Assembly (NCBI GenBank): GCA_964594545.1
Contig: CAZQNB010000002.1
Location: 19,993 to 83,992 of the forward strand
Source of the DNA: an uncultured bacterium
GTDB lineage: Bacteria; Chlamydiota; Chlamydiia; Chlamydiales; SM23-39
Direction: 5' to 3'
Length of the DNA stretch: 64,000 nucleotides
Positions 2,283 to 53,455 of the stretch are shown in pieces (positions within the stretch are counted from its first letter, which is position 1; each line of letters begins with the position of its first letter). The position numbers and the translations under genes are program-made. The notes below the pieces were generated by a model. The model had not been told where the DNA came from. It made no database searches and worked only from the letters and a program-made list of their open reading frames with translations.

Positions 2283-3055
2283 GAAGAGTCCTTCTGATCG
2301 GGAAGCCCAAAAAAATCTTTCATCGCTTGTTTAGATGCTTCTTTTCCAATGAGCGCAAGAGATTCTGTGAGGGGGATTTTTTTAGGACATACGCGGACGC
2401 AGTTTTGCGCGTTACCGCAGCCCGCAATGCCTTCTTCGCTTAACGCCGTATGGAGCCTGTCTGACTTTTCGAGTTTGCCAACAGGATGAGCGTTGAAAAG
2501 GCGCAGTTGCGACATCGCAGCCGGGCCTAAAAATTTTGAGTCCGAATTTACTTGCGGACAGCTTTCACTGCAACACCCGCAGGTCATACAAGTTGATAAT
2601 TCGTACATCGCCTCTTGCACTTCGGGGCTGATTTTTGGGCCAAATGAACCGCTATCCCATGATCCATCGACAGAAACCCAAGCTTTGACTTTTTGTAACG
2701 CTTCAAACATCCGCGTTCGATCGACACACAGATCCCGAATCAGAGGAAATTTGGTCAGAGGAGCGAGTGTAATGATGCTTAAGTTTGTAGCTTTAATGTA
2801 AGACTCGATCAATGCCGTGCAAGATTGTCTAGGGGTTCCATTGACAAGCATTGAGCAAGATCCGCACACCTCTTCAAGACACCCTTGTTCCCAGGCAACC
2901 GGCGTTGTTTTATTGCCTTGTTTTGTGATGGGGTTTCTTTGGATTTCCATCAACGCTGCAATCACATTCATGTCTGGGGATCTTGGAAGCTCAAATTCCT
3001 CAAAGTATTGATTATGGAGAGTCCCGCGATAAATTTTTAAGGTGAATGTTGTCAT
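2279..3055 (-). CDS. sdhB: succinate dehydrogenase iron-sulfur subunit
   Basis: Cys clusters CLEEVCGSC, CMTCGCCSESCP and CGNAQNCVRVCP. Overlaps the sdhA stop by 4 nt. Confidence 0.93.
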   Translation of the reverse strand: MTTFTLKIYRGTLHNQYFEEFELPRSPDMNVIAALMEIQRNPITKQGNKTTPVAWEQGCLEEVCGSCSMLVNGTPRQSCTALIESYIKATNLSIITLAPLTKFPLIRDLCVDRTRMFEALQKVKAWVSVDGSWDSGSFGPKISPEVQEAMYELSTCMTCGCCSESCPQVNSDSKFLGPAAMSQLRLFNAHPVGKLEKSDRLHTALSEEGIAGCGNAQNCVRVCPKKIPLTESLALIGKEASKQAMKDFFGLPDQKDSS

Positions 3056-4935
3056 ATGGGAGATGCAATCTGGGTTGGGATGTTTTTGAGCGTAGGAGTT
3101 ACTTTTTTCGCCTGTGTATAATCCCTATTTATGGGATCGAGATGCCGAATGTCAACAGGAACATAGGAAATATCGGGTTCATCCTTTGTCGGATTGTAGG
3201 TGGCGATCGTCGTTTTAAGCCAGTTCTCATCGTCCCTCTTCGGAAATTCCGGTTTATAGTGAGAGCCCCTAAATTCATTGCGAAGCAGCGCCCCCTTCGT
3301 GATCACAAGTGCAATTTCAAGCATCGCTTTGAATTGATGAGCGAAAGCATATGTTTGGTTGAGTTGCAAACCCTTGTCATCCAATGAGATGTGTTTGTAT
3401 CTTTCTTTGATTTCCTTGATTTTCTCAAGGGTCTTCTGAAGATCGGGGTTATCCCTTTTTACCGTGACGAATCGAACCATCCAGTCGGAGAGCTCGTCGT
3501 GGAGTTTGTGGACATTTTCCGGGCCTGTTCTATGGAGGAGTTCTTTTTGGATATCTTCTTCGATGCGGAGCGCGTTTTGGAATAGACTCTCCGGGACTTC
3601 TTTTGTTTTTAGTAAGTCAATGTATCTGGGGACTTCATTGCCGGTGATGAGGCCGCCAAAAATGCAAGAGAGGAGGGAGTTGGCTCCGAGGCGATTGGCC
3701 CCGTGGTAGAGATAATCGGATTCACCCACATTAAAACAGCCGCGCAAATTCGTCATTTGTCTAAAGCGATCTAATCGATCCGGGTCATCAGCAGCCGGCC
3801 AGTCGACCCAGGCGCCTCCCATTGTGTAGTGGACGGCGGGAAAAATTTTCATCGGCTTTTTGCGGGGATCTACACCTGTGAATTTTTGGTAGATGTCGAG
3901 AATCGATGCGAGTTTCCGATGTTTTTCCGGCGGAAGATGGGAGACATCGAGGTGGACTTGCATTTGTCCATCGATTCCAAGGCCAAGCTCACACACTCTT
4001 AAAACTTCTCTCGATCCGATATCGCGCGGCACGAGATTGCCAAATGAAGGGTACATCTCTTCAAGGAAAAACCACGGCTCTCCTGTTTTTCCGCACGAAC
4101 GCATAGTCCCATCGGGAAAGAGGATTTGTTTATCTGAATTGCCATAGACCCAGATTCTTCCCCCTTCGCCGCGGGATGCTTCAGAAATCAGGCGCAGTTT
4201 ATCGGGGCCCGGAATGGCAGTTGGATGGATTTGAATGAATTCACCGTTGGCGTATTTCATCCCTTGGCAATAGAGCCTACCGTTAGCGGCGCCTGTGCAG
4301 AACGTAGAGTTCGTTGATTTTTTGTAGATGAGGCCAAGGCCGCCTGTTGCGATGACAACAGCGTCGCTTTTGATGGCCTGAAGAGAAAGATCGAAAAGAT
4401 CGTGCATGACAATCCCACGAGCGATTCCCTCATCATCTAAAATAAGGCGTAAAAATTCATGGTGTTCAAATTTTTCGACAAGCCCTTTGACTTCATAGCG
4501 CCGCACCTGTTCATCCAGAGCATAGAGGAGTTGTTGCCCCGTGGAAGATCCTGCAAAGGCGGTTCGATCGTAAAGGGTCCCTCCAAATCTGCGAAAGTCG
4601 ATGTTTCCTTCTTTCGTTCGATTGAATGGGCAGCCAAATTTGTCGAGCATCCGCAAAATCGCAGGGCCTGCCATACACATTTCTAAGATGGGGGGTTGAT
4701 CGCCTAAAAAGTCGCCCCCTTTGATCGTGTCGTAGGCGTGGATGAGGGGAGAGTCGCCTTCGCCTTTTAAGTTGACTGCGACATTAATGCCCCCTTGCGC
4801 GCAGACAGAGTGGGATCTCCTCACCTTCGTGACGGAGATGAGTTTTACAGAGCACCCTTTTTCAGCAAGTTTCATCGTAGCGGATAGTCCCGCAAGACCG
4901 CCTCCGACAACAATGACCTCTTTTTTTTGCGCCAT
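3052..4935 (-). CDS. sdhA: succinate dehydrogenase flavoprotein subunit
   Basis: N-terminal VVGGGLAGL dinucleotide fold, HSVCAQGGIN FAD-attachment region and 627 aa length. Lies between sdhC and sdhB. Confidence 0.95.
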   Translation of the reverse strand: MAQKKEVIVVGGGLAGLSATMKLAEKGCSVKLISVTKVRRSHSVCAQGGINVAVNLKGEGDSPLIHAYDTIKGGDFLGDQPPILEMCMAGPAILRMLDKFGCPFNRTKEGNIDFRRFGGTLYDRTAFAGSSTGQQLLYALDEQVRRYEVKGLVEKFEHHEFLRLILDDEGIARGIVMHDLFDLSLQAIKSDAVVIATGGLGLIYKKSTNSTFCTGAANGRLYCQGMKYANGEFIQIHPTAIPGPDKLRLISEASRGEGGRIWVYGNSDKQILFPDGTMRSCGKTGEPWFFLEEMYPSFGNLVPRDIGSREVLRVCELGLGIDGQMQVHLDVSHLPPEKHRKLASILDIYQKFTGVDPRKKPMKIFPAVHYTMGGAWVDWPAADDPDRLDRFRQMTNLRGCFNVGESDYLYHGANRLGANSLLSCIFGGLITGNEVPRYIDLLKTKEVPESLFQNALRIEEDIQKELLHRTGPENVHKLHDELSDWMVRFVTVKRDNPDLQKTLEKIKEIKERYKHISLDDKGLQLNQTYAFAHQFKAMLEIALVITKGALLRNEFRGSHYKPEFPKRDDENWLKTTIATYNPTKDEPDISYVPVDIRHLDPINRDYTQAKKVTPTLKNIPTQIASPI

Positions 4936-8311: not shown

Positions 8312-8478
8312 TATACCGAAGATACCTCAAGAATCGGCTTTTAGGCGAGTTCAAAGCGCCGAAAATCGATTAAAAAAAAGGGAATTGTATTAGTCAATAC
8401 TATGCCCTTTTTTTTAATCGATTTATCGGCAGCTTTCAATCTCGCCTAAAAACCGATTCTTGAGGTATCTTCGGTATA
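8312..8478. repeat. A-type nested palindromic element, full copy (about 167 bp)
   Basis: tataccgaagatacctcaagaatcgg-cttttaggcgag-ttcaaagcgcc-...-ggcagctttcaa-tctcgcctaaaa-accgattcttgaggtatcttcggtata. It fills most of the divergent intergenic region 8292-8499. Confidence 0.9.
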
Positions 8479-9249: not shown

Positions 9250-9628
9250 TGGCGAGGGAGAGGAATCTCCTGTGAATTTAACGCCGCTCATCGACGTTGT
9301 CTTTGTGCTTCTGATCACATTTATGCTCATTGCCCCTATTTTGAATGTGGACCATGTCGATTTGGCGCCCGGTGGAATTTTGAGTAAGCAAGATGTGGAG
9401 GAATCTCCTTTTGCGATTACGCTTCGCTCGGATCAATCGATTTGGTATAGGGGCCGAAAGATCAGTTTAAAAGAGCTCTCTTCGCAATTGAAAGCCGAAA
9501 AGCTCCGCTTTCCCTCTCAACTGCCTCAATTGATCGCCGATAAAAATTGCCATTTCGGCCTCTATCAAGAGGTAAAAAATGTTTTAGAAGAGTGTGGATT
9601 TTTGCAAATGGATGTTGTGTTGCAGTGA
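9218..9628 (+). CDS. tolR: ExbD/TolR biopolymer transport protein
   Basis: NLTPLIDVVFVLLITFM TM motif. ATG 9218 follows a GGTG SD-like site; the ORF track starts at GTG 9212. Confidence 0.88.
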   Translation: MRRRHLPPPDDGEGEESPVNLTPLIDVVFVLLITFMLIAPILNVDHVDLAPGGILSKQDVEESPFAITLRSDQSIWYRGRKISLKELSSQLKAEKLRFPSQLPQLIADKNCHFGLYQEVKNVLEECGFLQMDVVLQ

Positions 9629-10326
9629 AAGAAAAATTTCTTGCCCTTTCCCGTTTTAAGCAAATTGTATTGACTGTCATAGCGCTTCACTTTTTGGCGG
9701 TATTCGTTCTTTGCATACACCATTTTTTTTCGAGAGAAAAACCAAAGCCTAAAATGATTGTTCGAACGGTCTCTTTTCAGCCTAAAATTGTGGCTAAAGA
9801 AGTGTCTCGAGCGCCAAAACCCATCGCAAAATCTCCTCCTGCTAAGAAGGTTGAAAAAGCTCTACCGCAAACAAAACCAGCATCGCTGACACCGCCAAAA
9901 ATCGATTCTTCAAGTTGTTCCGGTATAAAATCTTCTCTCGTCCAAGAGATTAAAAAAGATCTGGCAACCCTGGAAAAGAAAACAGCTGTGGTTCCTAAAG
10001 TAGCGCTATCTTTGCCAAAAGAGCTCTTTCCGACCCAACCAAAAGAAGAAATAGAGATTCCCGATGCAGGCTATGGCGAAATCTTGGTCTCCTATTTGCA
10101 AAATTCTCTCGATCTTCCGGAAATGGGTGAGGTCAAAGTAGATCTTGAACTTGATCCGAGAGGGCAGATTGTCCGTTTTGAAATTCTCGAGGCAAAAAGT
10201 AAAAAAAATAGTGATTTTTTAAAAAAGCGGTTGCCTGAGCTTGCCCTCCCATGCTTTAATAACGATCGAAAATCAGATGAAACCGTTACATTTACGATCA
10301 CTTTTAAGAATCGTCCTCTTTCTTAA
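9625..10326 (+). CDS. TolA-like membrane-anchored protein with Pro/Lys-rich linker
   Basis: GTG 9625 overlaps the tolR stop. Has an N-terminal TM (IVLTVIALHFLAVFVLCI), a PKPIAKSPPAKKVEKALPQTKPASLTPPK linker and a C-terminal domain. Lies between tolR and tolB. Confidence 0.55.
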   Translation: MKEKFLALSRFKQIVLTVIALHFLAVFVLCIHHFFSREKPKPKMIVRTVSFQPKIVAKEVSRAPKPIAKSPPAKKVEKALPQTKPASLTPPKIDSSSCSGIKSSLVQEIKKDLATLEKKTAVVPKVALSLPKELFPTQPKEEIEIPDAGYGEILVSYLQNSLDLPEMGEVKVDLELDPRGQIVRFEILEAKSKKNSDFLKKRLPELALPCFNNDRKSDETVTFTITFKNRPLS

Positions 10327-18660: not shown

Positions 18661-19698
18661 TTGAGGATGTCAATGGAAACTTCTAGGATTATCATTCGTA
18701 TGCCCAACTGGGTCGGAGATCTCGTCATGGCAACGCCCATTCTTGCCGATTTGAGAGAGGCTTTTCCAAAGGCGTCGATCACTGCGATGTGTAAATCTCC
18801 CATCTGTGAATTGTTAAGTACAGATCCCTCAATCGATGAGCTTTTTTGTTTTACAAAGCCTGTGAATAGTTTTGTCAGAAGAGAGGATCAACGGGATATC
18901 ATCTCTAAGATTCAAGCAGGCCACTTTGATCTTGGGATTTTGCTTACGAACTCTTTTTCTTCCGCTTGGTGGTTTTGGCAGGGAAATGTAAAGCGCCGTT
19001 TGGGATATCGAAATGGTCTTCGCAATTTATTGCTTACAGACGCTGTGAAACGATCTAAGACAAAGATGCATCAGGTAGATATCTATAAGAATTTGCTTGA
19101 ATCTGTGGGCGTTTCTCATTCAAACACAGCGCCTCGCCTTTTTGTGACAGATAAGGAGATAGCCGATTCTAAAAGTCTTTTATTTCAAAGAGGATACCAA
19201 AAGGGGAAGCCTCTCATCGGGATGAATCCCGGCGCTGCTTATGGATCCGCAAAGTGTTGGCCTGCGGATCGTTTTCGCTCTTTATGTTTAGAGCTTTTGA
19301 AAGATGACGTGTATATCGTTTTTTTTGGGGATGCATCCGGCGGATCTTTGATCAAGGAGATCTGTCAGGGGCTTCCTCCTCAAGTGATGAATTTAGCAGG
19401 CTCTACAAGTTTAAGAGAGCTTGCGTGTTTGATTAAAGATTGCACCGTTTTTGTAACGAATGATAGCGGGCCTATGCATATCGCATCTGCGTTTAACGTT
19501 CCTCTTGTGGCCCTTTTTGGGTCGACAGACGAGATTGTCACAGGGCCGTTTGGACAAAGTCAATCGGTGATCAATAAACAGGTGAGCTGCTCTCCGTGTT
19601 TGAAGAGAAAGTGTCCCATTGATTTTCGTTGTATGACGCAAATATCTGTTGCTGAAGTGGTTTTGTGTATCCGTAAAAAACTAGGTTCTCATGTTTAA
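18661..19698 (+). CDS. glycosyltransferase family 9 (ADP-heptose:LPS heptosyltransferase-like)
   Basis: IIIRMPNWVGDLVMATP, KCWP and NDSGPMHIA motifs typical of RfaF/WaaC-type GT9. The start is likely ATG 18667 or 18673. Confidence 0.85.
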   Translation: MRMSMETSRIIIRMPNWVGDLVMATPILADLREAFPKASITAMCKSPICELLSTDPSIDELFCFTKPVNSFVRREDQRDIISKIQAGHFDLGILLTNSFSSAWWFWQGNVKRRLGYRNGLRNLLLTDAVKRSKTKMHQVDIYKNLLESVGVSHSNTAPRLFVTDKEIADSKSLLFQRGYQKGKPLIGMNPGAAYGSAKCWPADRFRSLCLELLKDDVYIVFFGDASGGSLIKEICQGLPPQVMNLAGSTSLRELACLIKDCTVFVTNDSGPMHIASAFNVPLVALFGSTDEIVTGPFGQSQSVINKQVSCSPCLKRKCPIDFRCMTQISVAEVVLCIRKKLGSHV

Positions 19699-21445
19699 GA
19701 AAATCCGACGATTGTTATTGCCAAATCCTTTTGATTCGCAATTGAAAAAATGCGTAAAACATGGCGGGAAAAAGGTTCTTCTCGGGTGGAACCGGGGGCT
19801 TGGGGATATTGCGCTTGGCCTTTACGCGATGATTCAAAGGATTCGAGAAAAAGTGCCGGGTGCGGAAATTACGTTTTTGACTCGTCCCAATTTGCAAGAC
19901 GGATTTTCTCTCTTGCGCGGGATTGATGTTTTGATCGATCCCGATCTTAAAAGAGGACAGTGTTGGGACGCTTGCTTTTCCTTAAAAAAACTGGGGATCG
20001 ATCCAAAATCATTTGATCTCATCATTGGAAAGCCGAGTCCCACCGATTGGGTTCCTTGGCAACGGGGGAAGGTAGTGCCTCTTTTAGAATGGGACGCCTC
20101 TTATGAAAATCTATGGCAGAAATTTGGGCTTGAAGAGGGGTTTACCTATATCGGCGTTCAGGTTGTCGTTGAAACAAATTATGGCCCTTGGCGCAATTGG
20201 CCGATTGTTCATTGGAAGCTTCTATTTGCCCGATTAGAAAAACTAAAAAACGTAAAAATCATCTTGCTCGGCGGCGATGAAAAGACCGAATTTCAAGGCG
20301 AGAATCTGATCGACCTTAGAGGGAAAACAACGCTCTTTGAACTTCTATCGATTGCGACGAAATGCTCTCATATGATTCTTCCGGATTCAGGCATTTTATC
20401 GATGGTCTATTATCTCAATTACCCCTTTCCGATCCATCTCATCAGCCTTTGGGGCGATCCAAATCATGGGATTTTAAAACAGGCCGTAAACTCTCCAAAT
20501 CCCCGGTTAAAGCACACCCCGTTGATCGGAGCTCTTCGCGATTTATCAACCGTGACAGTAGATCTAATGATGAATACCCTTTTTCCGGTAAAACCACTTA
20601 AAACATGCCTAAAATCTTCAGAGGTGATTCCGGGCACTCTTGCCCATGTGGGGTGTATTTTATTAGCCGGCGGTCAAGGGACAAGACTTAAAGTTAAAGG
20701 GCCAAAAGGGACTTTTGCAATCCAGGGGAAAAGTCTTTTTGAGTGGGTCGTTGAAAAAGCTCCCAAGGAAAATTTTCCCATTGCCATCATGACATCTCCC
20801 TTAAATCATGAAGAGACGGTTTCGTTTTTTAAGAGAAATGAGAATTTTGGAAGAGAGATCTATTTTTTTTCGCAGGAGATGCTCCCGTTTTTAGATCAGA
20901 AAAAACGGCCCTTGAAAACTCTTGCGCCGAATGGAAACGGCTCGGTGTTTCGCTCATTTTTGCAAAGCGGGCTGTATGATGTTTTCCGAAAAAAGGGGAT
21001 CGATTTATTGACGATTGTCCCTGTTGAAAATCCACTTGCTGATATGGCTGATCTTTCTTTAATTGGGTATGCAAGAGAGACAAAATCGGATGTAACCATC
21101 AAATGCGTGAAGAGAGAATCGCAAGAGGAATCGATGGGAGCCATTGTTGAAAGAGAAGGGAGAATTGAAATTGTGGAGTATATCAATCGAGATCGTTGCC
21201 TTGAGTATGTGTATTCAAATACCGGAATGATGGCGATCTCTATGCCCTTTTTTCATGAGATGTCAAAGCAAGAGCTTCCGCTGCATTGGGTAGAAAAACC
21301 GATTCCGGGAACGAAGAAATTAGGCTGGAAGGGGGAGAAATTCATTTTTGATGCTTTTTGTTTTGGGAATGTGTCAGCTCTTTGCTATGACAAAGGGAGC
21401 TGTTACGCGCCAATCAAATCTATTTATACCATTTATGAGAAATAA
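19691..21445 (+). CDS. fusion protein: GT9-like glycosyltransferase domain plus eukaryotic-type UDP-sugar pyrophosphorylase (UDPGP/UAP) domain
   Basis: N-terminal half has GWNRGLGDIALGLY, WRNWP and LPDSGILSM (GT9-like). C-terminal half has LLAGGQGTRL..GPKG, MTSPLNHEET, PNGNG and GEKFIFD (UDPGP family). Confidence 0.8.
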   Translation: MFKKIRRLLLPNPFDSQLKKCVKHGGKKVLLGWNRGLGDIALGLYAMIQRIREKVPGAEITFLTRPNLQDGFSLLRGIDVLIDPDLKRGQCWDACFSLKKLGIDPKSFDLIIGKPSPTDWVPWQRGKVVPLLEWDASYENLWQKFGLEEGFTYIGVQVVVETNYGPWRNWPIVHWKLLFARLEKLKNVKIILLGGDEKTEFQGENLIDLRGKTTLFELLSIATKCSHMILPDSGILSMVYYLNYPFPIHLISLWGDPNHGILKQAVNSPNPRLKHTPLIGALRDLSTVTVDLMMNTLFPVKPLKTCLKSSEVIPGTLAHVGCILLAGGQGTRLKVKGPKGTFAIQGKSLFEWVVEKAPKENFPIAIMTSPLNHEETVSFFKRNENFGREIYFFSQEMLPFLDQKKRPLKTLAPNGNGSVFRSFLQSGLYDVFRKKGIDLLTIVPVENPLADMADLSLIGYARETKSDVTIKCVKRESQEESMGAIVEREGRIEIVEYINRDRCLEYVYSNTGMMAISMPFFHEMSKQELPLHWVEKPIPGTKKLGWKGEKFIFDAFCFGNVSALCYDKGSCYAPIKSIYTIYEK

Positions 21446-21589
21446 CTTTGAGTTGTAGCGTCGGATAGTGCGTCAGATTTGGACGATCTTTTCGAAGCTG
21501 ATATTCTTGAATATCAGCGAGAAAGGATCGTTCAGAGAGGACGTGCTAGACGATGCTACAACGCAAATCTATTTTTCATAAGTGGTATT
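21425..21589. repeat. B-type palindromic element (about 165 bp), degenerate right arm
   Basis: tataccatttatgagaaataactttgagttgtagcgtcggatagtgcgtca...gacgtgctagacgatgctacaacgcaaatct..cataagtggtat. The left end overlaps the last 21 nt of the preceding CDS. Confidence 0.85.
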
Positions 21590-22707: not shown

Positions 22708-22877
22708 TAATACCAATCGCAGCAAATAAATTCATATTTAAGCCGCGTGAAAGCTGTCGATAAATCGAAGATCGTAAGTGGCATTGTATTAGGTCAATAC
22801 TATGCCCTTTTTTTAATTGATTTATCGGCAGCTTTCAATCCCGTCCAAACGCCGATTCTTCAAGTTGTTTCGGTATA
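22708..22877. repeat. A-type palindromic element, chimeric copy (left and right arms from different subfamilies)
   Basis: The left arm (taataccaatcgcagcaaataaattcatatttaagccgcg) is not complementary to the right arm (cccgtccaaacgccgattcttcaagttgtttcggtata). The shared core tgaaagctgtcgataaatcga...tgatttatcggcagctttcaa is intact. Confidence 0.85.
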
Positions 22878-22983: not shown

Positions 22984-24165
22984 ATGAGTTCTGTTGTACG
23001 CGTAGACACAGATGGAGTCCCTACATATCGCCCGCCTGCTGTAAATCCTCAATATATCCCGACTGCTGTAAATCCTCAATATATCCCGACTGCTGTAAAT
23101 CCTCAATATATCCCGACTGCCCCACAACACTTTGGAAGGACGCAGGTACAGCTTCAGAGACTGGCTCTCAAAACTCTTGCCGGTGTAGGCGCTTTGGCAG
23201 GAACCTTTGCTGCTATAAAGGGGGATGCAGAAAGAATATTCACTGTCCCGCTTTTATTGGGTTTTGTGGGGGGATGCTTATATGTGGCATCGAATGTAAA
23301 AGACTACGAGGATCCAGACGAACTTCGCGCTATGCAAGAGAATGCGGCAATACAGACTTTTCCTGCCATTATAAAGGAGCATAGCTTAGAAAATACTGTA
23401 AAATATCTTCTGAATGCGGATGTAGTAAAACTCAAATTTAAGGAAGCGTATGGTTTAAGTAAACTTTCTAGACTTCTACAGATCTATCCTTTCGCAATCA
23501 TCCGAAAATATAAATTGGCAGATGACGCTCTCTTGCAAAGATGTTTTTTTAATCAATTGAGAGAGGCCTCTGTTTGGGAGCTTGAAGAATCTTTTGTGAC
23601 AATGTGTAGAATAGAGGGTGTTATTTCTGAGGTTGGAAGCAAGGCGCTGATAGATTTTATTTGTCAAGTAAAGAGCTGTGAGACCAACTACTCAGCCCGT
23701 TGCGCAGATCTGGATACAAAATATCCAGGGCGAACATCAAAACTTCTGAAAGAACTTGATCTGAAAGCAAAAGCACTTCCCGGTGAAGCAGAAAAAATGA
23801 AAAATACGATCCTTCAAAACGGCTATCGGGCAGCAAACGAACAAGCAGAGGTTCGATTAGTCCTAGATACTTTCTTGACGGGTAAATCGGCAATGGAATG
23901 TTTGGGTAATTACGTTGATACTACTGTGCAAGGGAGTGTTGTAGCTCAAGCTACTGCTGCAAAAACTGAACAACAATGGCTTGAGCAACAGTTGACAGCG
24001 ATCGAAACGAAGCGACAGCACATCCTCGAAAAGAACTTTGGGGGTGAGCAAGAAACTTTATATCAGCAGGCCCTTAAGATTCTTGAGTCCGATCGTCGGG
24101 GAACATTATGGCAGTTACAAAGTAAGTTTTACGAGAAAATCTTTGAGCTCTTCGGGGATATTTAG
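22984..24165 (+). CDS. Inc-like protein: N-terminal AVNPQYIPT x3 repeat, bilobed hydrophobic domain, coiled-coil C-terminus
   Basis: AGGAAGG SD before the ATG. Two hydrophobic lobes, LKTLAGVGALAGTFAAI and TVPLLLGFVGGCLYVASNV, are separated by 8 polar residues. Confidence 0.75.
   Translation: MSSVVRVDTDGVPTYRPPAVNPQYIPTAVNPQYIPTAVNPQYIPTAPQHFGRTQVQLQRLALKTLAGVGALAGTFAAIKGDAERIFTVPLLLGFVGGCLYVASNVKDYEDPDELRAMQENAAIQTFPAIIKEHSLENTVKYLLNADVVKLKFKEAYGLSKLSRLLQIYPFAIIRKYKLADDALLQRCFFNQLREASVWELEESFVTMCRIEGVISEVGSKALIDFICQVKSCETNYSARCADLDTKYPGRTSKLLKELDLKAKALPGEAEKMKNTILQNGYRAANEQAEVRLVLDTFLTGKSAMECLGNYVDTTVQGSVVAQATAAKTEQQWLEQQLTAIETKRQHILEKNFGGEQETLYQQALKILESDRRGTLWQLQSKFYEKIFELFGDI
23038..23118 (+). 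repeat. perfect 27-bp tandem repeat x3 inside a CDS
   Basis: gctgtaaatcctcaatatatcccgact repeated three times, in frame (AVNPQYIPT). Confidence 0.95.
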
Positions 24166-27799: not shown

Positions 27800-27964
27800 A
27801 ATACCATTTATCATAAATAACGTTGAGTTGTAGCGTCGGATAGTGCGTCAGATTTGAAGGATCGTTTCGAAACTGATATTCTTGAATATCAGTGAGAAAG
27901 GATCGTTCAAACATGACGCACTATCCGACGCTACAACTCAATGTTGTTTTTGATAGATGGTATA
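27800..27964. repeat. B-type palindromic element (about 165 bp), near-perfect copy
   Basis: aataccatttatcataaataacgttgagttgtagcgtcggatagtgcgtca...tgacgcactatccgacgctacaactcaatgttgtttttgatagatggtata. Confidence 0.9.
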
Positions 27965-28078
27965 AATGAACAGGATCCGCTTCGCTTGCAGGATCGCCAT
28001 GAAGCATGGCGGCAGGATTTTTTCCTGCCGCGAACGAAGTGAGCGATCCTGCCAGCGAAGCGGATCCTGTTCATTTAT
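27961..28078. repeat. C-type palindromic element (about 118 bp), abuts the B-type copy via a shared TATA
   Basis: tataaatgaacaggatccgcttcgcttgcaggatcgc...gcgatcctgccagcgaagcggatcctgttcatttat with an inner hairpin ggcggcagga-tttttt-cctgccgc. Confidence 0.9.
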
Positions 28079-34823: not shown

Positions 34824-34889
34824 TAATACCAAACGCAGGAAATAGATTCATATTTAAGCTGCGTGAAAGCTGTCGACAAATCGAAGATC
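34824..34889. repeat. A-type palindromic element, left half only
   Basis: taataccaaacgcaggaaatagattcatatttaagctgcgtgaaagctgtcgacaaatcgaagatc closely matches the left half of the copy at 22708. No right half follows. Confidence 0.8.
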
Positions 34890-38472: not shown

Positions 38473-38636
38473 TATACCGAAACAACCTCAAAAGTTGGTT
38501 TTTAAGCAGCGTGAAAGCTGCCGAATTTTCTCGATCGCAAGTGCGTTTGTATTTCTAATACTAAGGCACTTGCGATCGAGGAAATTCGGCGCTTTGACGC
38601 GCTTAAAAAATCAGCTTTTGAGGTTGTTTGGGTATA
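38473..38636. repeat. A-type nested palindromic element, full copy, opposite core polarity
   Basis: tataccgaaacaacctcaaaagttgg-tttttaagcagcg-tgaaagctgcc-...-ggcgctttgac-gcgcttaaaaaa-tcagcttttgaggttgtttgggtata. A solo arm fragment follows at 38633-38660. Confidence 0.9.
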
Positions 38637-38680
38637 CCGTTTGTGATTGAAGAAACTTTGTTGGGGGATTTTGTTTTAAT

Positions 38681-41600
38681 ATGAAATTTTTGAAAGCATT
38701 TTTTGTTTTACTTTTCGTTTTGTGTGGTTTTTTTCTACCAAATTGTACCCAAGCAAAACCGTCAGGATTTCAGCTGAGATCTGGCGATGCAAAACCGGTT
38801 ATCCAAAACTCTTCGGACTCTTTCGTTATTGAGAGCTCGAAAAATTCTGTGATTGATTGGGATAGTTTTTCAATTCATACAGGGGAATGTGTCCGCTTTG
38901 AGCAATTGGAAAACACATATGTGCTCAATCGCGTTACAGGCAATGAGGAGAGTGCCATTTTGGGCTCTTTACGCTCGAATGGAGCTGTTTATCTTGTGAA
39001 TCCAAACGGTATTTTGATTGGGAAAGAAGCGTATATTGATACGGCCGGATTTATTGCTTCGACGTTGGATATTTTAGGTTCAGATTTATCTTCGCTTCAG
39101 TTCCTTGGCGATAGCGAAAAAGGGGTTGTCAATCAAGGGAGAATTCATTGCGCAGCGGGGGATGTTTTTCTGATTGGAAAAACAGTCGAAAATAGTGGAA
39201 CAATTGATGCTCCTCAAGGACGGCAGGGCCTTCTCTCCGGTTTTGATGTTCTGATCTTTCCCGAAAAGGCTCCGCAAGTGCGAATTCGGGTAGAAGAATC
39301 GGTCGACGCAGATATTTTAAAAGAAAACCCATATGCACTCGCTATTTGTCATCGTGGGAAAGTTCTGGCTAAAGAAGTGTATCTGATCGCGGAAAATGGC
39401 ATTACAGAAGTCACGGGAACCATTGTCGCTATGAATGGCGAACAAGGAGGGCATGTCCGGGTTCTTGGCGACGAAGTTCTCCTCTTAAATTCAGCTAAGA
39501 TCGATGTATCGGGGAAACAAGGCGGAGGAGAGGCTCTTTTCGGGGGGGATTACCAAGGGAAAAATCCGGAGATCAAAAATGCAAAACATCTTTTCGTTGA
39601 AAAAGATGTTGTTATCAAAGCAAGCGCAAAAGAGGCGGGCAATGGCGGGCGCGTGATTTTCTGGAGCGATGAGGCCACAATTTTTTATGGGTTGGTGGAT
39701 AACAGAGGCGGCGAAGTTCGTGGCGATGGAGGGTTCACCGAGGTGTCCGGTGGGTATTTAAATTTTCAAGGGTTTGTCGATGGGAGCTCTCCGTTTGGAA
39801 GCGCAGGAACGCTCCTGCTCGATCCAACAAATATTACAATTTCGACAGGCGGGGATGCAAACGGATCTTTTTCTGCGGGTATTTGGACTTCAACAGCCTC
39901 TACTGCGACCATCAACACGACCACGCTTCAAACGCAATTAGGATCGAATAATGTCACAATTAATACATCGGGACCTTTTGGGAGTACAGGAACAATTGCA
40001 ATTACTCACCCGATCTCGTGGTCTTCGGCCAATAACTTAACTCTTATTGCCGATGCCTCCATTGCGGTAAGTTCCGGAGCTGCTATTACCTGTTCTTCTA
40101 CAGGTGGAGTGCAGATGACGGCCAAAGGAACCGGCGCTACGGGAACAGGGATATCGTTGGGGTTAAATGCACATATATCTACAACTTCCGGCAATATCAT
40201 TTTGAACGGTACTTCGGGTACGGGGACAAGTGGGTCGGGAATTACCTTCTTAGGAACGATTTCCTCTACAACAGGAACGGTATCTCTTACAGGGACATGT
40301 AGGTCAACTTCTACTGCCCCTATTGGGGTTTCTTTAGGAAATTCTTCTGCCGTAAGAACAACCGGTGGAGGATCTATTGCAATTATAGGAACAGGTTCTG
40401 ATAAAACCGCCGCTAACAGTGCTCACGGTGTTTCGATTGCTGCAGGGGCAGTTGTTAATACAGCAACAGGCAATGGCCCTATTTCGATTACAGGTACTGC
40501 GCGAGCCGGTAATGCCTCTTGTGGGGTGCGTATTTCCAGCGTCACTCCAGGATTGATTGTTAGTGGAACAGGGACGATCACAATCGGCGGAACGAGCAGC
40601 GCAACAACTGCTGGATCTCACGGAGTTTCTATTGCGGCGGCTTGGACGCCCGCAACGACAGGTTTAGTTACTTTATCAGGAACGGGGGGTCCTTCCGGCG
40701 CAAGTCATGGGGTCAATATTGCAGGTACATATACAGGTGCAGGAGATATTGTTTTTGCTAATTGTGTAGGAGGTTCAGGCGGCGGTAATGGAATTAACGT
40801 GGCGGCTGTCTTTACAACAACAGGGACAATTACTGCGACAACAAATATTCGAGGAAACGGGAGCGGAGGGGTTGGGTTTTCCTCCGGCAATACGTTTTCT
40901 ACATCGGGGATAAACAAATCGATTTCGATCACAGCAAGCGCCGGAGGGACCTTAGGCGCTTGTCATGGAATTTCTCTGACAGCGGGCACTTTATCCACAA
41001 CAGGCGGCGGCTCGATCACACTGAATGGAACGGGGGGGGCGAGTAATTTAGCCTCTCACGGAGTGAATATTACAGGGGGAATTCCGTCAGTTTCCACAAC
41101 AACCGGGAATGGCAATATTTCGATCACAGGGACTGCGCAGGGCAGCGCTGCAAGCTTTGGTCTAAATATCGGAGCGAATATCGTAAGCACATCAGGAACC
41201 ATTACAGTGAGCGGAACGAGCAGCGCGACTTTGGGAGGATCTCATGGAGTTTCTATTGCATATTGGACGCCCGCAACGACAGGTTTAGTCACTTTATCAG
41301 GAATGGGGGGACCTACTGGTGCTAGTCATGGGCTTCATATTGGCGGTCAATATATTGGTGTTGGAAATATTGTTTTCATCAATTGTGTAGGCGGAGCAGG
41401 CGGCGGTAATGGAATTAACGTGGGAGCAGGTTTTGTAACGACAGGGTCAATCACCGCAACAACAAACATTCAAGGAAACGGCAGCGGAGGGATTGGGTTT
41501 TTCTGTAACAATTCGTTTTTGTCAACAGCGACACCTCAGCTTGTTTCGATCACAGCGAGCGCCACAGGGAATACGGGCGCTTGTCATGGGATTTCCTTGA

Positions 41601-43150
41601 CAGGAGCCTGCTCTTTAAGAGGCTCAGCGATCACACTCAACGGAACAGGGGGACCGAGTGATTTACTCTCTCATGGAGTCAATATTACAGGCGGAGCTTC
41701 GACAGTGTCCACGACAGTATCAGGCAACGGCCCCATTTCAATTACAGGGACTGCTGCAGGCAGTGCTGCAAGTTTTGGTGTAAATATGGCAGGCAGTGCC
41801 GCGAACTTTGTTGAGAGCGGATCTGGAACCATTACAGTGAGTGGAATAAGCAGCTCTACAGCGGCTGGATCTCACGGAGTTTCTATTTCCTCTGCTTGGG
41901 CGCCGGCAACGACAGGTTTAGTCTCTTTATCGGGAACCGGGGGAGGGACAGGAGCGAGTTGCGGTATTGCAATTGGCGCAAACGTAACCTTTAGCGGCGC
42001 AATTACTATTAACGGCACGGAAGGAGGCGGAGAGGGTTCCTTTGGCAACTCTTTTGGGGGGAATGTAACAACTTCCGCAGGAACTATTGAGGTATTTCAA
42101 AGTTCTACTTTAGCGGCTGCAACAATAATTGATTCGACAAATGGAGGGAGTTTTCCTGGAGGCGCTCTGATTGATTTTTCAGGAGGGACTGCCACGATCG
42201 ATGGCGCGCAAAGTTTGACCTTGGTAGCTGGAACGTCAACAATAAGTTTGGAGGGAGCCGTCGGAGGAACTTCTCCATTAACGAATCTTACATTTACAAG
42301 CGCCAATCTTATTGAGTTGGGAAGCAATATCACTGTAAGCGGCGCAAATCCCCTTACTTTTCCGTTTGCAGTAAGTATTACCGGAACATCAACGATTAAT
42401 ACGAATAATGCGGCTCTCTCCTTTAGTTCAACGATTAATGGCGCGCAAAGTTTGACTCTGAATTCCGGGAGTGCATCTACGACCCTTTCAACAGCAGTTG
42501 GAGGCATCACCGCACTGAATTCTTTTAGCGCAACCTCTGCGACAATTGCGCAAGGGTCAAGTGTAACAACGATAGGGCCGATTACTTACACAGGTTCAAC
42601 AAGCATCAATATCCAAGGTGATTTAACGACAACTGGCGGCGCAATCAGTATGATAGGGCCGGTTTCTTTAACGACATCGCCTTTAAGTTTTGATACAACA
42701 AATGGATCTGCAGACGGCGCTTCTATTTACTTTTCGTCAACGCTCAATGGAGGCTCTAATGTTGCCTTCAGAGCGGGAACTTCGGGAGTGGTCACGTTCA
42801 CCGGTGTTGTCGGAGGGGAGACTCCTCTGGGAACAGTCGTGATTACGAATGCGGCATTAAGTCTTGGAGCGGTCAATATTGGAGGAAATATTACGGCAAA
42901 TTCCTTTGTGCTGTCCTCAGCGTCTCCTGTAACTCTCCTAGGATCTAGCATAATTGATACAAGTGCAGCTGCCGGGTTGGGGATTGTTTTTGGTTCTACA
43001 ATTGACGGAACAACCCCCGGGGGGCAATCTCTTACTTTAATAGCCAATGGAGCGGATACAATCACTCTTCCGGGTAATATTGGGACAAATGTAAGATTAG
43101 GAACATTGACAATTGAAGGGGGGACTGTCGAGGTTCTGATCGGTCCTTAA
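38681..43150 (+). CDS. large two-partner-secretion (TpsA/FhaB-like) exoprotein with beta-helical Gly/Ser/Thr-rich repeats
   Basis: Signal peptide. TPS (haemagglutination activity) domain: SVIDWDSFSIHTGECVRF, VLNRVTG, GAVYLVNPNGILIG. Then about 1300 aa of repeats carrying recurring (S/A/C)HG(V/I)x(I/L) units. Confidence 0.85.
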   Translation: MKFLKAFFVLLFVLCGFFLPNCTQAKPSGFQLRSGDAKPVIQNSSDSFVIESSKNSVIDWDSFSIHTGECVRFEQLENTYVLNRVTGNEESAILGSLRSNGAVYLVNPNGILIGKEAYIDTAGFIASTLDILGSDLSSLQFLGDSEKGVVNQGRIHCAAGDVFLIGKTVENSGTIDAPQGRQGLLSGFDVLIFPEKAPQVRIRVEESVDADILKENPYALAICHRGKVLAKEVYLIAENGITEVTGTIVAMNGEQGGHVRVLGDEVLLLNSAKIDVSGKQGGGEALFGGDYQGKNPEIKNAKHLFVEKDVVIKASAKEAGNGGRVIFWSDEATIFYGLVDNRGGEVRGDGGFTEVSGGYLNFQGFVDGSSPFGSAGTLLLDPTNITISTGGDANGSFSAGIWTSTASTATINTTTLQTQLGSNNVTINTSGPFGSTGTIAITHPISWSSANNLTLIADASIAVSSGAAITCSSTGGVQMTAKGTGATGTGISLGLNAHISTTSGNIILNGTSGTGTSGSGITFLGTISSTTGTVSLTGTCRSTSTAPIGVSLGNSSAVRTTGGGSIAIIGTGSDKTAANSAHGVSIAAGAVVNTATGNGPISITGTARAGNASCGVRISSVTPGLIVSGTGTITIGGTSSATTAGSHGVSIAAAWTPATTGLVTLSGTGGPSGASHGVNIAGTYTGAGDIVFANCVGGSGGGNGINVAAVFTTTGTITATTNIRGNGSGGVGFSSGNTFSTSGINKSISITASAGGTLGACHGISLTAGTLSTTGGGSITLNGTGGASNLASHGVNITGGIPSVSTTTGNGNISITGTAQGSAASFGLNIGANIVSTSGTITVSGTSSATLGGSHGVSIAYWTPATTGLVTLSGMGGPTGASHGLHIGGQYIGVGNIVFINCVGGAGGGNGINVGAGFVTTGSITATTNIQGNGSGGIGFFCNNSFLSTATPQLVSITASATGNTGACHGISLTGACSLRGSAITLNGTGGPSDLLSHGVNITGGASTVSTTVSGNGPISITGTAAGSAASFGVNMAGSAANFVESGSGTITVSGISSSTAAGSHGVSISSAWAPATTGLVSLSGTGGGTGASCGIAIGANVTFSGAITINGTEGGGEGSFGNSFGGNVTTSAGTIEVFQSSTLAAATIIDSTNGGSFPGGALIDFSGGTATIDGAQSLTLVAGTSTISLEGAVGGTSPLTNLTFTSANLIELGSNITVSGANPLTFPFAVSITGTSTINTNNAALSFSSTINGAQSLTLNSGSASTTLSTAVGGITALNSFSATSATIAQGSSVTTIGPITYTGSTSINIQGDLTTTGGAISMIGPVSLTTSPLSFDTTNGSADGASIYFSSTLNGGSNVAFRAGTSGVVTFTGVVGGETPLGTVVITNAALSLGAVNIGGNITANSFVLSSASPVTLLGSSIIDTSAAAGLGIVFGSTIDGTTPGGQSLTLIANGADTITLPGNIGTNVRLGTLTIEGGTVEVLIGP
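40469..42060 (+). repeat. about 2.5 tandem copies of a 618-636-bp (about 208-aa) module inside the TpsA-like gene
   Basis: Module starts at 40469 (GNGPISITGTARAG), 41105 (GNGNISITGTAQGS) and 41723 (GNGPISITGTAAGS). The same internal order ...SHGVSIA..TGLVTLSG..SHGVNI..GGGNGINV.. is seen in each. Confidence 0.85.
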
Positions 43151-43235: not shown

Positions 43236-43316
43236 TATACCGTTCGTAATTGAACAATCGACGTTTGGACGGGTTCAAAGCGCCCAAACGCCGATTCTTC
43301 AATCACGAGCGGTATA
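43236..43316. repeat. A-type palindromic element, short form (81 bp)
   Basis: tataccgttcgtaattgaacaatcgacgtttggacggg-ttcaaagcg-cccaaacgccgattcttcaatcacgagcggtata. Preceded by a mini-hairpin tagtcgattaaatttaatcgacta at 43212-43235. Confidence 0.88.
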
Positions 43317-44887: not shown

Positions 44888-45055
44888 TATACCGCTCGTG
44901 ATTGAAGACTCTGCGTTTGGGCGGGATTGAAAGCTGCCGATAAATCGAAGATCGTAAGTGGCATTGTATTGACCTAATACAATGCCCTTTTTTTTAATTG
45001 ATTATCAAAGCTTTGAACCCGTCCAAACGCCGATTGTTCAATTACGAACGGTATA
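44888..45055. repeat. A-type nested palindromic element, full copy
   Basis: tataccgctcgtgattgaagactctgcgtttgggcggg-attgaaagctgccgataaatcga-...-cccgtccaaacgccgattgttcaattacgaacggtata. Preceded by a mini-palindrome tatactcgtgc..gcacgagtata at 44857-44890. Confidence 0.9.
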
Positions 45056-47268: not shown

Positions 47269-47537
47269 ACAGCGCTATATTTTTGGATCGCGGCAAATAT
47301 TGTATTTGTATACTGGAGCACTTGCGCGCCTAACCATCCGCTCATAAAAATAATTGTAAACACGACCGCAAATAACTTGACTGTGAAGGAAAGTGTTTGC
47401 TCTTGAATTTGAGTGGCCGCTTGAAAAATCGCAACCAAAAGCCCCAAAATCATACTCACAATGATCGGAGGTCCTGATAAAATCAGGATCAGGATCAGCG
47501 CTTGGTAGGTCAGTTCATAGATTTCATTTGCAAACAT
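47265..47537 (-). CDS. sctS: type III secretion export apparatus protein SctS (YscS/FliQ family)
   Basis: MFANEIYELTYQALILILILSGPPI...AATQIQEQTLSF aligns with YscS from its own N-terminus. The 14 upstream codons in the ORF track are repeat-encoded. Confidence 0.9.
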   Translation of the reverse strand: MFANEIYELTYQALILILILSGPPIIVSMILGLLVAIFQAATQIQEQTLSFTVKLFAVVFTIIFMSGWLGAQVLQYTNTIFAAIQKYSAV

Positions 47538-47703
47538 ATACCGACGATACCTCAATAATTGGTTTTTAGGCGAGTTCAAAGCGCCTATTTTCCAGTTTCG
47601 GAAGAGGGTTCATATTGAAACAAATATGGACCCTCTTCCGAAGCTGAAAAATAGGCAGCTTTCAATCTCGCCTAAAAGCCAATTCTTGAGGTATCTTCGG
47701 TAT
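47537..47703. repeat. A-type nested palindromic element, full copy, filling the sctR-sctS intergenic gap
   Basis: tataccgacgatacctcaataattgg-tttttaggcgag-ttcaaagcgcc-...-ggcagctttcaa-tctcgcctaaaa-gccaattcttgaggtatcttcggtat. Confidence 0.9.
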
Positions 47704-47711
47704 CAACCTTT

Positions 47712-48467
47712 TTATTTAAACGAGATGGCAAGTCCCTGGATTAATACAGTCCACCCATCAACGAGAACCAGCAGGAGTAGTTTGATCGGAAGGGCAATGG
47801 TGAGCGGAGAGAGCATCATCATCCCCATCGCAAGGAGAATGTTGGAAACGACAAGGTCGATCACGAAAAAGGGGAGATAAATGAGGACGCCAATTTCAAA
47901 AGCGGTTTTCAGCTGGCTTGTGATGAATGACGGAATCAAAATAATAAAATCATTTGCTTTGAGCTGCGACTTATACGGCTCCGGGAAAAGGCGGTAGGCG
48001 AGCTTATAGAAACTGGCCATGTTTTTTGTCGTACAGTTGCGCTCTAAAAATCCTTTGAGAGGCTCTTTTGCTTTGTCTACCACGTTAACGATGAACGTTG
48101 CGGCCTCTGACGAAATCACCGTTTGGGGCGCTTGCGTTCGAATCGTCTCTTCAGACGCTTTATACATCGCAAGTCCCGTTGGGAACATCACATAAATGGT
48201 GATGAGAAGCGCAATCCCGTTTAACACTTGGTTTGGTGGCGTTTGTTGGACGCCAAGCGCTTGTCTAAGCAAAGAGAGGACAACCACGATCTTCATGAAA
48301 GAGGTGAGGAGCATGATCGCGAAGGGCAAAAGGGAAAGCCCTGCGAGGACGGCAAGTTTTGTCACCATGCTCGGATTTAAACTGCCGTCTGTGGCTCCCG
48401 CAATCGCTGTTTGCGCCATCAAATGGCTTGTAGAAAAAAGGAGGAAAAAGAGGATGATGTATTTCAT
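47712..48467 (-). CDS. sctR: type III secretion export apparatus protein SctR (YscR/FliP family)
   Basis: FMKIVVVLSLLRQALGVQQTPPNQVLNGIALLITIYVM block typical of the FliP/YscR family. Confidence 0.92.
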   Translation of the reverse strand: MKYIILFFLLFSTSHLMAQTAIAGATDGSLNPSMVTKLAVLAGLSLLPFAIMLLTSFMKIVVVLSLLRQALGVQQTPPNQVLNGIALLITIYVMFPTGLAMYKASEETIRTQAPQTVISSEAATFIVNVVDKAKEPLKGFLERNCTTKNMASFYKLAYRLFPEPYKSQLKANDFIILIPSFITSQLKTAFEIGVLIYLPFFVIDLVVSNILLAMGMMMLSPLTIALPIKLLLLVLVDGWTVLIQGLAISFK

Positions 48468-50831: not shown

Positions 50832-50930
50832 AAAATATATCCCTGCCTTTTTTATAACATGAGATGGTTACTCATTGCAAATAGATAGTTAGAGCGGGGT
50901 GTAATTAAAACTGTTAGTCGCGTAGAAAAA

Positions 50931-51040
50931 ATGAATGAACAGGATCCGCTTCGCTTGCAGGATCGCTCACTTCGTTCGCGGCAGGAAAAAAGAAAGAATC
51001 CATCCTGCCGCCATGCTTCATGGCGATCCTGTTCATTTTT
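50931..51040. repeat. C-type palindromic element, copy with truncated right arm and expanded loop
   Basis: atgaatgaacaggatccgcttcgcttgcaggatcgc-tcacttcgttcgcggcagg...cctgccgccatgcttcatg-gcgatcctgttcatt. It lacks the ccagcgaagcggatcctg segment present at 28040-28067. Confidence 0.85.
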
Positions 51041-51043
51041 AAT

Positions 51044-51118
51044 TATACCGTTCGTAATTGAACAATCGGCAGCTTTGAATCCCGTCCAAACGCCGATTCT
51101 TCAATCACGAGCGGTATA
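51044..51118. repeat. A-type palindromic element, short form (75 bp)
   Basis: tataccgttcgtaattgaacaatcg-gcagctttgaa-tcccgtccaaacgccgattcttcaatcacgagcggtata. Confidence 0.88.
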
Positions 51119-51124
51119 TACCTG

Positions 51125-53295: not shown

Positions 53296-53455
53296 CTCGA
53301 CTTTGTACATTTTTCGGTAGCGAGTTTTGCAAGATTTTGATCTACAATCGGTTACAGCTCCCTTCAGTCGGCTTGAACACGCCATTGAAGGGAGCTGTAA
53401 CCGATTGTAGATCAAAAGATTGTGAAAATCGCTCCGAAAAATGTACAAAGTCGAG
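53296..53455. mobile_element. D-type 160-bp palindromic element flanked by a 5-bp direct repeat GGAAG (MITE-like)
   Basis: ctcgactttgtacatttttcgg...ccgaaaaatgtacaaagtcgag. GGAAG is found at 53291-53295 and 53456-53460 and is not part of the palindrome. Confidence 0.8.

Follow-up and report, generated by a model that had tools for sequence, protein, structure and literature searches.

The stretch of DNA analysed here (the window) comprises 64 kb of contig CAZQNB010000002.1 and carries a family of long palindromic elements, exemplified by the copy at positions 8312-8478. The GC content of the window is about 44%, and its gene content is chlamydial, including a TLC ATP/ADP transporter and a type III secretion operon with sctJ, sctL, sctR, sctS and sctT. 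The closest named proteins to its SctR come from metagenome-assembled genomes (MAGs) of Chlamydiales, at 87% identity. Waddlia chondrophila, a candidate source on account of the GC content and its repeat-rich genome, was rejected, since the nearest SctR sequences other than the window's own are no more than 87-91% identical; the DNA is that of an uncultured chlamydia. A scan against Rfam at gathering thresholds yielded three tRNAs only, and the palindromic repeats had no match there.

The original prediction, made from the letters of the window alone, listed copies of four types, A to D, and each of the listed positions does carry sequence of the kind described. In total, the window contains ten A-type copies, two arm fragments, two B-type, two C-type and one D-type copies. 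The A-type copies span 60-169 bp and have no genes of their own; five of them are full (164-169 bp), three are short through internal deletion, one is chimeric and one is half a copy. Of the two arm fragments, one is a solo arm (9895-9927) and the other a partial arm (38633-38673), and both are additions to the earlier list. The terminal heptamers TATACCG and CGGTATA occur nine and eight times in the 64 kb, respectively, and the 26-nt arm motif TATACCG-N8-TSAANAATYGG has 17 matches with at most two mismatches, compared with 0.07 expected from shuffled sequences. The dinucleotide TA lies next to 16 of 18 arms in the window.

The predicted layout, in which an end is followed by an arm, a box, a core and an inner stem with a small capped loop, was recovered in the A-type copies. 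Copy 8312-8478 folds as a single hairpin with a DNA folding energy of -74.9 kcal/mol (z = -20.9). The imperfect complementarity of the two cores gives a copy its predicted polarity, and a covariance model built on the copies with the core (the core-A group) favours one strand by 19-35 bits in five of the five full copies. This model finds every A-type copy but also scores any long hairpin, including those of the B, C and D types; it has no family specificity and was left out of the counting in other genomes. The short copies 43236-43316, 51044-51118 and 63168-63227 represent three distinct internal deletions within one arm subfamily, and copies 22708 and 44888 have a non-complementary inner stem in common.

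Two loci provide evidence for the mobility of these elements. The first is copy 8312-8478 itself, which is absent from L001, a contig from another sequencing run with 99.1% identity to the window across 9 kb. The empty site in L001 reads CTTAGTT-TA-AATCATT, and the occupied site in the window reads CTTAGTT-TA-[TACCG...CGGTA]-TA-AATCATT. The gain amounts to 165 bp, that is, a 163-bp element and one extra TA, so that the comparison of related strains proposed along with the prediction revealed both presence/absence and duplication of TA. The second locus is the spacer between sctR and sctS, which is 6 nt long (TAAACT) in a more distant syntenic relative with identical gene order and an 87% identical SctR (L132/L133; L132 3271-3278) and 174 nt long in the window, where it is occupied by the 168-bp copy 47537-47704. 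There the ATG of sctS is re-formed from the duplicated TA (window 47537-47712), and the GAGG located 12 nt upstream of sctS comes from the inserted element. The former AGG-type ribosome-binding site of sctS is now 165 bp further upstream, with the GAGG in its place. At the adjoining copies 63003 and 63168, the left junction reads GG-TA-TA-TACCG and the middle one CGG-TA-TA-CCG, and the arithmetic of these junctions is what one would expect if the long copy had gone into the TA at the end of the short one. The family is active over the span of time in which strains diverge.

The partner transposon, an IS630/Tc1-mariner-like element with the same termini, whose search the original prediction had suggested, was found in chlamydial metagenome contigs outside the window. 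The arm-motif scan, performed with one genome per species, returned at least 116 stretches (loci L007-L122). One of them, L007 278-1966, is a TA-flanked unit of 1,689 bp with TATACCG-type ends that encodes a protein of 347 amino acids with DDE_3 (3e-34), HTH_33 and HTH_23 domains. This transposase has thousands of homologs; those with an organism name are annotated as IS630 family transposases of 'Chlamydiales bacterium' or 'Simkaniaceae bacterium', and the top plasmid match of the IS630 transposase is in the megaplasmid of Protochlamydia naegleriophila. The insertion sequence (IS), of 1.12 kb, is abundant in chlamydial metagenome contigs; four complete copies (L124, L125, L127 and L128) are 1,121 bp long including both flanking TA and have the ends TATACCC-N8-TCAAAA(T/G)TT(T/G)G. 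The left end of the IS, 62 nt before the ATG, consists of TA followed by TACCCTTCGTGAATCAAAATTTTGA; at the right end, 15 nt beyond the stop codon, the reverse complement consists of TA followed by TACCCAAGTAATCTCAAAAGTTGG. In L126, an A-type element is located directly beside the IS on the same contig. Two IS630 copies of about 1.7 kb also contain a passenger gene of the PD-(D/E)XK nuclease superfamily (Pfam PDDEXK_3, 4e-39), which follows downstream of the transposase but still within the terminal repeats (L007 388-813; L126 about 2600-3100).

The ends of the IS and the arms of the A-type elements have two blocks in common, TATACC(C/G) and T(C/G)AA(A/G)A.T..G, 8 nt apart, as well as exact 13-16-mers. 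In the palindromic elements these blocks form a two-part terminus of 26 bp, TA followed by TACC(G/C)-N8-T(C/G)AA(A/G)A(A/T)T(C/T)GG. The transposase of ISY100, a member of the IS630 family, inserts into TA, duplicates it and binds the transposon ends by two helix-turn-helix motifs (PMC2170065), and the two-block terminus is consistent with a domain of this kind. The intervening N8 spacer is not the same at the two ends, left and right, of the IS; between the two arms of the small elements it matches by 86%. Recognition by the transposase alone is thus insufficient to account for the symmetry of the arms.

Four features that characterise MITEs (miniature transposable elements with inverted repeats) of the IS630 type were found: terminal repeats in common with an autonomous IS630 element (L007, L124, L125, L127 and L128), insertion at TA with its duplication, small size and many copies with no coding capacity, and presence/absence polymorphism (at 8312 and at the sctR-sctS copy). 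As a whole, the best explanation is that the A-type copies are very probably MITEs of the IS630/Tc1-mariner type that are moved by an IS630 transposase and in which palindromy is favoured at propagation. The original prediction had spoken of coexisting MITE- or REPIN-like subfamilies with TA-flanked termini; its MITE part stands on the TA duplication and the IS630-type termini, and its REPIN part fails, as the GTAG/CGTC heads are lacking. A reading of the elements as simple deletion derivatives of one IS, named with the prediction as an outcome that would count against it, was rejected, since the similarity of the MITEs to the sampled IS copies ends within 30 bp of the termini.

The family extends well beyond the window. 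About nine in ten of the motif stretches listed come from Chlamydiota or from MAGs labelled 'uncultured bacterium', 'bacterium' or Verrucomicrobia, and several unlabelled MAGs carry typical full elements. Twelve of the matches listed are labelled as other phyla, including L007; the others, such as those in Maribacter, Tolypothrix and Ruminococcus, are taken as chance matches to the pattern. At least 55 full elements with paired arms were collected, of which 52 are non-redundant and 49 are from other genomes. They are 157-178 bp long (mode 164-167) and occur in at least about 28 species-level assemblies, which include Parachlamydiales, Parachlamydiaceae, a Waddlia sp. MAG and some Verrucomicrobia-labelled MAGs. 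There are also MAGs of Simkaniaceae and Rhabdochlamydiaceae that have arm matches without a full paired element. By BLAST, the interiors of the full elements fall into four multi-member clusters and three singletons. Almost all of the full elements form a single long hairpin; the number of symmetric pairs is 46-78 except in two elements. A blastn search of copy 8312 against plasmid records gave no match.

The variation of the arms was analysed in an alignment of 16 copies with the core, of which the window supplied five; the remaining eleven belong to other genomes, at least eight in number. RNAalifold yielded one hairpin of 71 pairs, 48 of which have two-sided changes with the pairing kept. 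The fraction of paired cells is 93.2%, compared with 76.2 +/- 0.7% in shuffles and 34-50% when the partners were slid by 1-3 columns. The number of pairs with two-sided changes is 28.2 +/- 2.6 in shuffles and 18-23 in slid alignments, and the observed covariation score of 0.49 compares with 0.16 +/- 0.01 and at most 0.125, respectively. None of 500 shuffles reached any of the observed values. Matched variation of the two arms, as originally proposed, was therefore upheld. Short A+T-rich arms inflate the between-element identity in a global comparison of left and right arms (55 elements), and the column-wise analysis of homologous copies was used in its place.

The paired columns comprise 1,135 cells: 1,023 Watson-Crick pairs, 35 G·T, 29 A·C and 48 mismatches of the transversion type. 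Both strands of an element fold about equally well, with 0-8 G·U among 55-78 pairs. The similar numbers of G·T and A·C and the equal folding of the strands give no sign of one transcribed strand as the selected object; it is as DNA that the arms are symmetric. Copy pairs that are at least 90% identical differ by 45 one-sided and 8 two-sided changes of stem pairs. In copy pairs with less than 70% identity, about 70% of the differing pairs are two-sided and 87% of these still pair, compared with about 30% and 38%, respectively, if the arms were independent. One-sided changes in close copies and two-sided changes in distant ones indicate that single copies decay and that spreading lineages stay palindromic. 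The claim that the hairpin is preserved while the primary sequence drifts holds as an observation. The data give no support to structure-level selection on an RNA as its cause.

The mechanism that we favour is as follows. An IS630 transposase would move the A-type elements in trans by cut and paste, and its two helix-turn-helix motifs probably read the two conserved blocks of the terminus. After insertion, individual copies would decay by one-sided mutation, and only lineages with complementary arms would found new subfamilies. Complementarity would thus be needed for propagation, or strongly helpful to it, and selection would act at that level. The reason we prefer is the stiffness of a 165-bp duplex, which prevents looping; with a cruciform or hairpin, both junctions of the element with its flanks would come to lie side by side for the transposase, and the conserved A+T-rich centre would favour extrusion of this form. 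Template switching from arm to arm may contribute, and whatever the elements do to host transcripts, such as that of sctR-sctS, would be of secondary importance.

Several points weigh against this reading. The likeness between IS and MITE is confined to the terminal 26-30 bp or so, at about 70-80% identity. No IS630-type transposase is encoded in the 64-kb window according to tblastn, in agreement with the earlier statement that the window holds no transposase, and all complete IS copies are from contigs other than that of the window. There is only one clean empty site from the same species, as the other strain contigs end inside repeats. Elements of the IS630/Tc1-mariner group are known to move as double-stranded DNA, for which a palindromic interior is unnecessary, and a cruciform or hairpin is presumed to take part in transposition. 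In copies 22708 and 44888, an imperfect interior did not block at least one duplication. Finally, the invariant asymmetric core is unaccounted for by the MITE model.

Template switching in quasi-palindromes is a known mutational process in bacteria, and it offers a serious, though clearly less probable, alternative to selection. The elements would still be IS630-type MITEs, and intramolecular switching between the arms would create their complementarity as a mutational by-product that only appears compensatory. The complementarity is purely Watson-Crick and strand-symmetric, as for a process at the DNA level; the three independent internal deletions between short repeats (43236, 51044 and 63168) show that hairpin-associated replication errors do occur in these palindromes; and the same design recurs in families with other ends and target duplications (B and D). 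However, unchecked correction should have removed the C·C mismatch, which all 16 copies have retained, and the bulged A, retained in 15 of the 16; these copies are from at least 8 genomes. In the TTCGTAAT/CTCGTGAT subfamily, three arm mismatches were passed on unchanged in four copies, and uncorrected one-sided changes dominate among close copies.

The mismatch and the bulge belong to the core. In the core-A group, the conserved parts are the termini, a part of the inner block, the loop GTATT..AATAC and the two cores, of which the left one (TCAAAGC) is identical in 16 of 16 copies and the right one (AGCTTTC) in 15 of 16. This asymmetric core is not present in the ends of the IS and may be a protein-binding site. 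A bolder idea, which we consider doubtful, is that transposition uses the fold-back form as its very substrate or cannot proceed without it as a cofactor. In this case chlamydial IS630 transposases would prefer extruded palindromes of about 165 bp, and the core with its C·C mismatch and bulged A would be a site to which a protein binds in a structure-specific way. If true, this would represent a structure-dependent variant of Tc1/mariner-type transposition and would account for the convergence of the unrelated A, B and D families on a full-length hairpin of about 160 bp.

It seems unlikely that the hairpins are selected as RNA structures in host transcripts, whether for transcript stability, for processing or for translation, along the lines suggested for ERIC and Correia elements. 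The covariation is strong, as such selection would predict, and copies do occur in transcribed spacers such as sctR-sctS, where the element supplies the GAGG upstream of sctS. Only 6 of 55 elements lie inside open reading frames (ORFs), compared with 74% of random positions. Covariation is, however, the only one of the three marks of a structured RNA that was found: G·U tolerance is missing, with very low G·U use and about as many A·C as G·T, and so is strand specificity. The copies have both orientations relative to neighbouring genes, and divergent sites (11) are more common than convergent ones (2), with 15 co-directional. Copy 8312 has no terminator-like or promoter-like site in our scan and no Rfam match, and host selection at single loci cannot yield covariation among non-orthologous copies of different genomes.

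It is similarly improbable that the subfamilies had separate origins, each in a fold-back duplication of a single transposon end and adjacent DNA, so that the arms would be young inverted duplicates. This origin would fit the interiors of the subfamilies, which are unrelated by BLAST and yet palindromic in each case. But the core-A group has homologous columns in which stems change pair by pair, a gradual turnover; all subfamilies are of similar length; and the sampled IS ends are not the source of the interiors. A REPIN-like doublet of repetitive extragenic palindromic (REP) sequences moved by RAYT, an IS200/IS605-like tyrosine transposase, would also be palindromic, intergenic and multi-copy, but it was rejected as extremely improbable given the TA duplication at the empty site, the 26-bp terminal inverted repeats of the IS630 type, the TACCG/CGGTA termini in place of GTAG/CGTC heads and a single stem of 80 bp (71 pairs) instead of two short REP hairpins.

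Positions of the palindromic elements in the window, with their strand and setting
Feature	Position	Strand	Remarks
Full A-type copy, 167 bp including both TA	8312..8478	+ (core polarity)	172.5 bits on + and 141.2 on -; between divergent genes, glycosyltransferase-like (-) and exbB (+)
Solo right-hand arm, TATACCGGAACAACTTGAAGAATCGA on - strand	9895..9927	-	In frame within ORF 9547-10326
B-type palindrome, 165 bp	21425..21589	none	Ends TATACCA...TGGTAT
Chimeric copy	22708..22877		Left arm of ATACCAATCGCAGC type, right arm A-type; inner stem non-complementary
B-type palindrome, 165 bp	27800..27964	none	
C-type palindrome, GC-rich	27961..28078		Ends AAATGAACAGGATCC...GGATCCTGTTCATTT; adjoins B copy
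Half copy, incomplete	34824..34889		92% identity to left half of 22708
Full A-type copy, 164 bp	38473..38636	- (core polarity)	133.9 bits on - and 115.1 on +; upstream of TPS-domain gene 38681-43150
Partial A-type arm	38633..38673	+	Joined to copy 38473..38636 via common TATA
Short A-type copy, 81 bp	43236..43316	none	Internal deletion
Full-length A-type copy, 168 bp	44888..45055	-	120 bits on - and 87.4 on +; chimeric, poorly paired inner stem
Full A-type copy, 168 bp	47537..47704	+	Between sctR and sctS
C-type palindrome, 110 bp	50931..51040	none	
Short A-type copy, 75 bp	51044..51118	none	Different internal deletion
D-type palindrome, 160 bp	53296..53455		Ends CTCGACTTTGTACA; flanks are 5-bp direct repeat GGAAG; just upstream of ABC-F gene
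Full A-type copy, 169 bp	63003..63171	+	173.3 bits on + and 139.9 on -
Short A-type copy, 60 bp	63168..63227	none	Third internal deletion

The B, C and D elements are also long palindromes. The B copies, with their TA-flanked TACCA ends, are probably a sister family of the IS630 type. One of them overlaps the 3' end of ORF 19691-21445 (UDPGP-like domain), where it provides the last six codons and the TAA stop (21425-21445). The left arm of 22708 and 34824 represents a further terminus type, which was also found in a 50-bp mini-palindrome in L126. The D type is a separate mobile family; a relative in L014 (1121-1280) has 83% identity to the copy 53296-53455, with 5-bp flanks GTTAA there and GGAAG in the window, and the differences in the inner stem of this pair are matched between the arms. 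The C copies are GC-rich, 110-118 bp long, and both adjoin A or B copies.

Some spacers are occupied in more than one species. The spacer downstream of a penicillin-binding-protein gene contains the B and C copies in the window (27800-28078) and A-type arms in two other species (L030 28-53; L080 3197-3222), and it may be a recurrent hot spot of insertion. In the spacer between a NUDIX gene and sctJ, the window (50832-51124) has a 75-bp short A copy and a C copy, and a relative (L132 22-179) has a 48-bp mini-element with the two arms TATACCCAAACAAGCTCAAAAATCGG/TTTTTGAGTTTGTTTGGGTATA; this reflects either an old common insertion or a hot spot. The solo arm at 9895-9927 lies in an ORF that has no Pfam match and is located between exbD and a TolB-like gene. 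Either the arm was exapted into coding sequence or the start of the gene is mis-set. Repeats of other kinds were also observed in the window, namely 27-bp tandem repeats in ORF 22984-24165 (23020-23120) and repeats of about 620 bp, 75-82% identical, in the 1,489-aa gene 38681-43150, whose TPS domain is of the two-partner-secretion type (40556-41943).

In related strains, the short-read contigs L002, L003, L004 and L130 break off within copies of the A, B, C or D type; L002, for instance, stops at window position 8339 and L130 at 53322. The palindromes fragment short-read assemblies at every copy. The contig L007, with its chlamydial-type IS, is binned as 'Patescibacteria', and a chlamydial SctR (P0236) is labelled 'Minisyncoccia'. 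Short repeat-bounded chlamydial contigs are probably mis-binned in public MAGs, and L007 is probably one such case.

Few mobile elements have been described in environmental chlamydiae, which live as obligate intracellular bacteria, and few genetic tools are described for them. The copies sit inside essential operons such as sctR-sctS and re-form start codons and gene ends. They can serve as markers for strain typing, and the repeats account for fragmented chlamydial MAGs and mis-binned contigs. A native TA-targeting transposase with its pair of ends is a possible tool for mutagenesis. The dense pair-by-pair turnover of the stems also provides a clean natural data set on why MITEs stay palindromic. 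Our literature searches found no report of MITEs in chlamydiae, and the Waddlia genome paper counted repeats only if they exceeded 200 bp. This is apparently a phylum-wide chlamydial family of a well-known kind of element that has so far been undescribed.

Among known systems, RUP of Streptococcus pneumoniae and Nezha of cyanobacteria are bacterial MITEs derived from IS630/Tc1-mariner elements. They resemble the chlamydial elements in being gene-less, about 100-200 bp long and intergenic in many copies, with terminal repeats shared with an IS630 element, TA duplication and several subfamilies. The chlamydial elements differ in their phylum (Chlamydiota), in being near-perfect palindromes throughout with a conserved asymmetric core, and in an interior that is not derived from the partner IS; their terminus is not known from those families. 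The Correia elements of Neisseria (CREE/NEMIS) also have TA-flanked TATA ends, 26-bp inverted repeats and a length of about 100-160 bp, exist as long and internally deleted short forms, and are often co-transcribed with neighbouring genes. Correia elements also have a central IHF site; no similarity of the termini is known beyond the TATA start, and for the chlamydial elements a partner IS630 transposon can be identified.

The ERIC/IRU elements of enterobacteria and yersiniae are imperfect palindromes of about 127 bp that are inserted at TA and can form hairpins. Whether their structure is conserved has been a topic of discussion, and the conservation of ERIC has been attributed to effects at the RNA level. 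The chlamydial elements have no strand or G·U signal, and their lengths, sequences and hosts differ. Plant Stowaway MITEs, which are mobilised by mariner-like transposases, share with them the TA duplication, the fold-back of the whole element and the restriction of similarity with the partner to the terminal repeats; these are eukaryotic, and no homology is claimed. REPINs are likewise intergenic palindromic multi-copy repeats with no gene of their own that are associated with RAYT (PMC3337134, PMC3733652), but they have no target duplication, consist of two short REP hairpins with GTAG/CGTC heads, by which REP sequences are mostly classified (PMC3733652), and depend on a tyrosine transposase. 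In comparison with these systems, the notable features of the chlamydial elements are the upkeep of the full-length palindrome at the level of lineages and the invariant asymmetric core.

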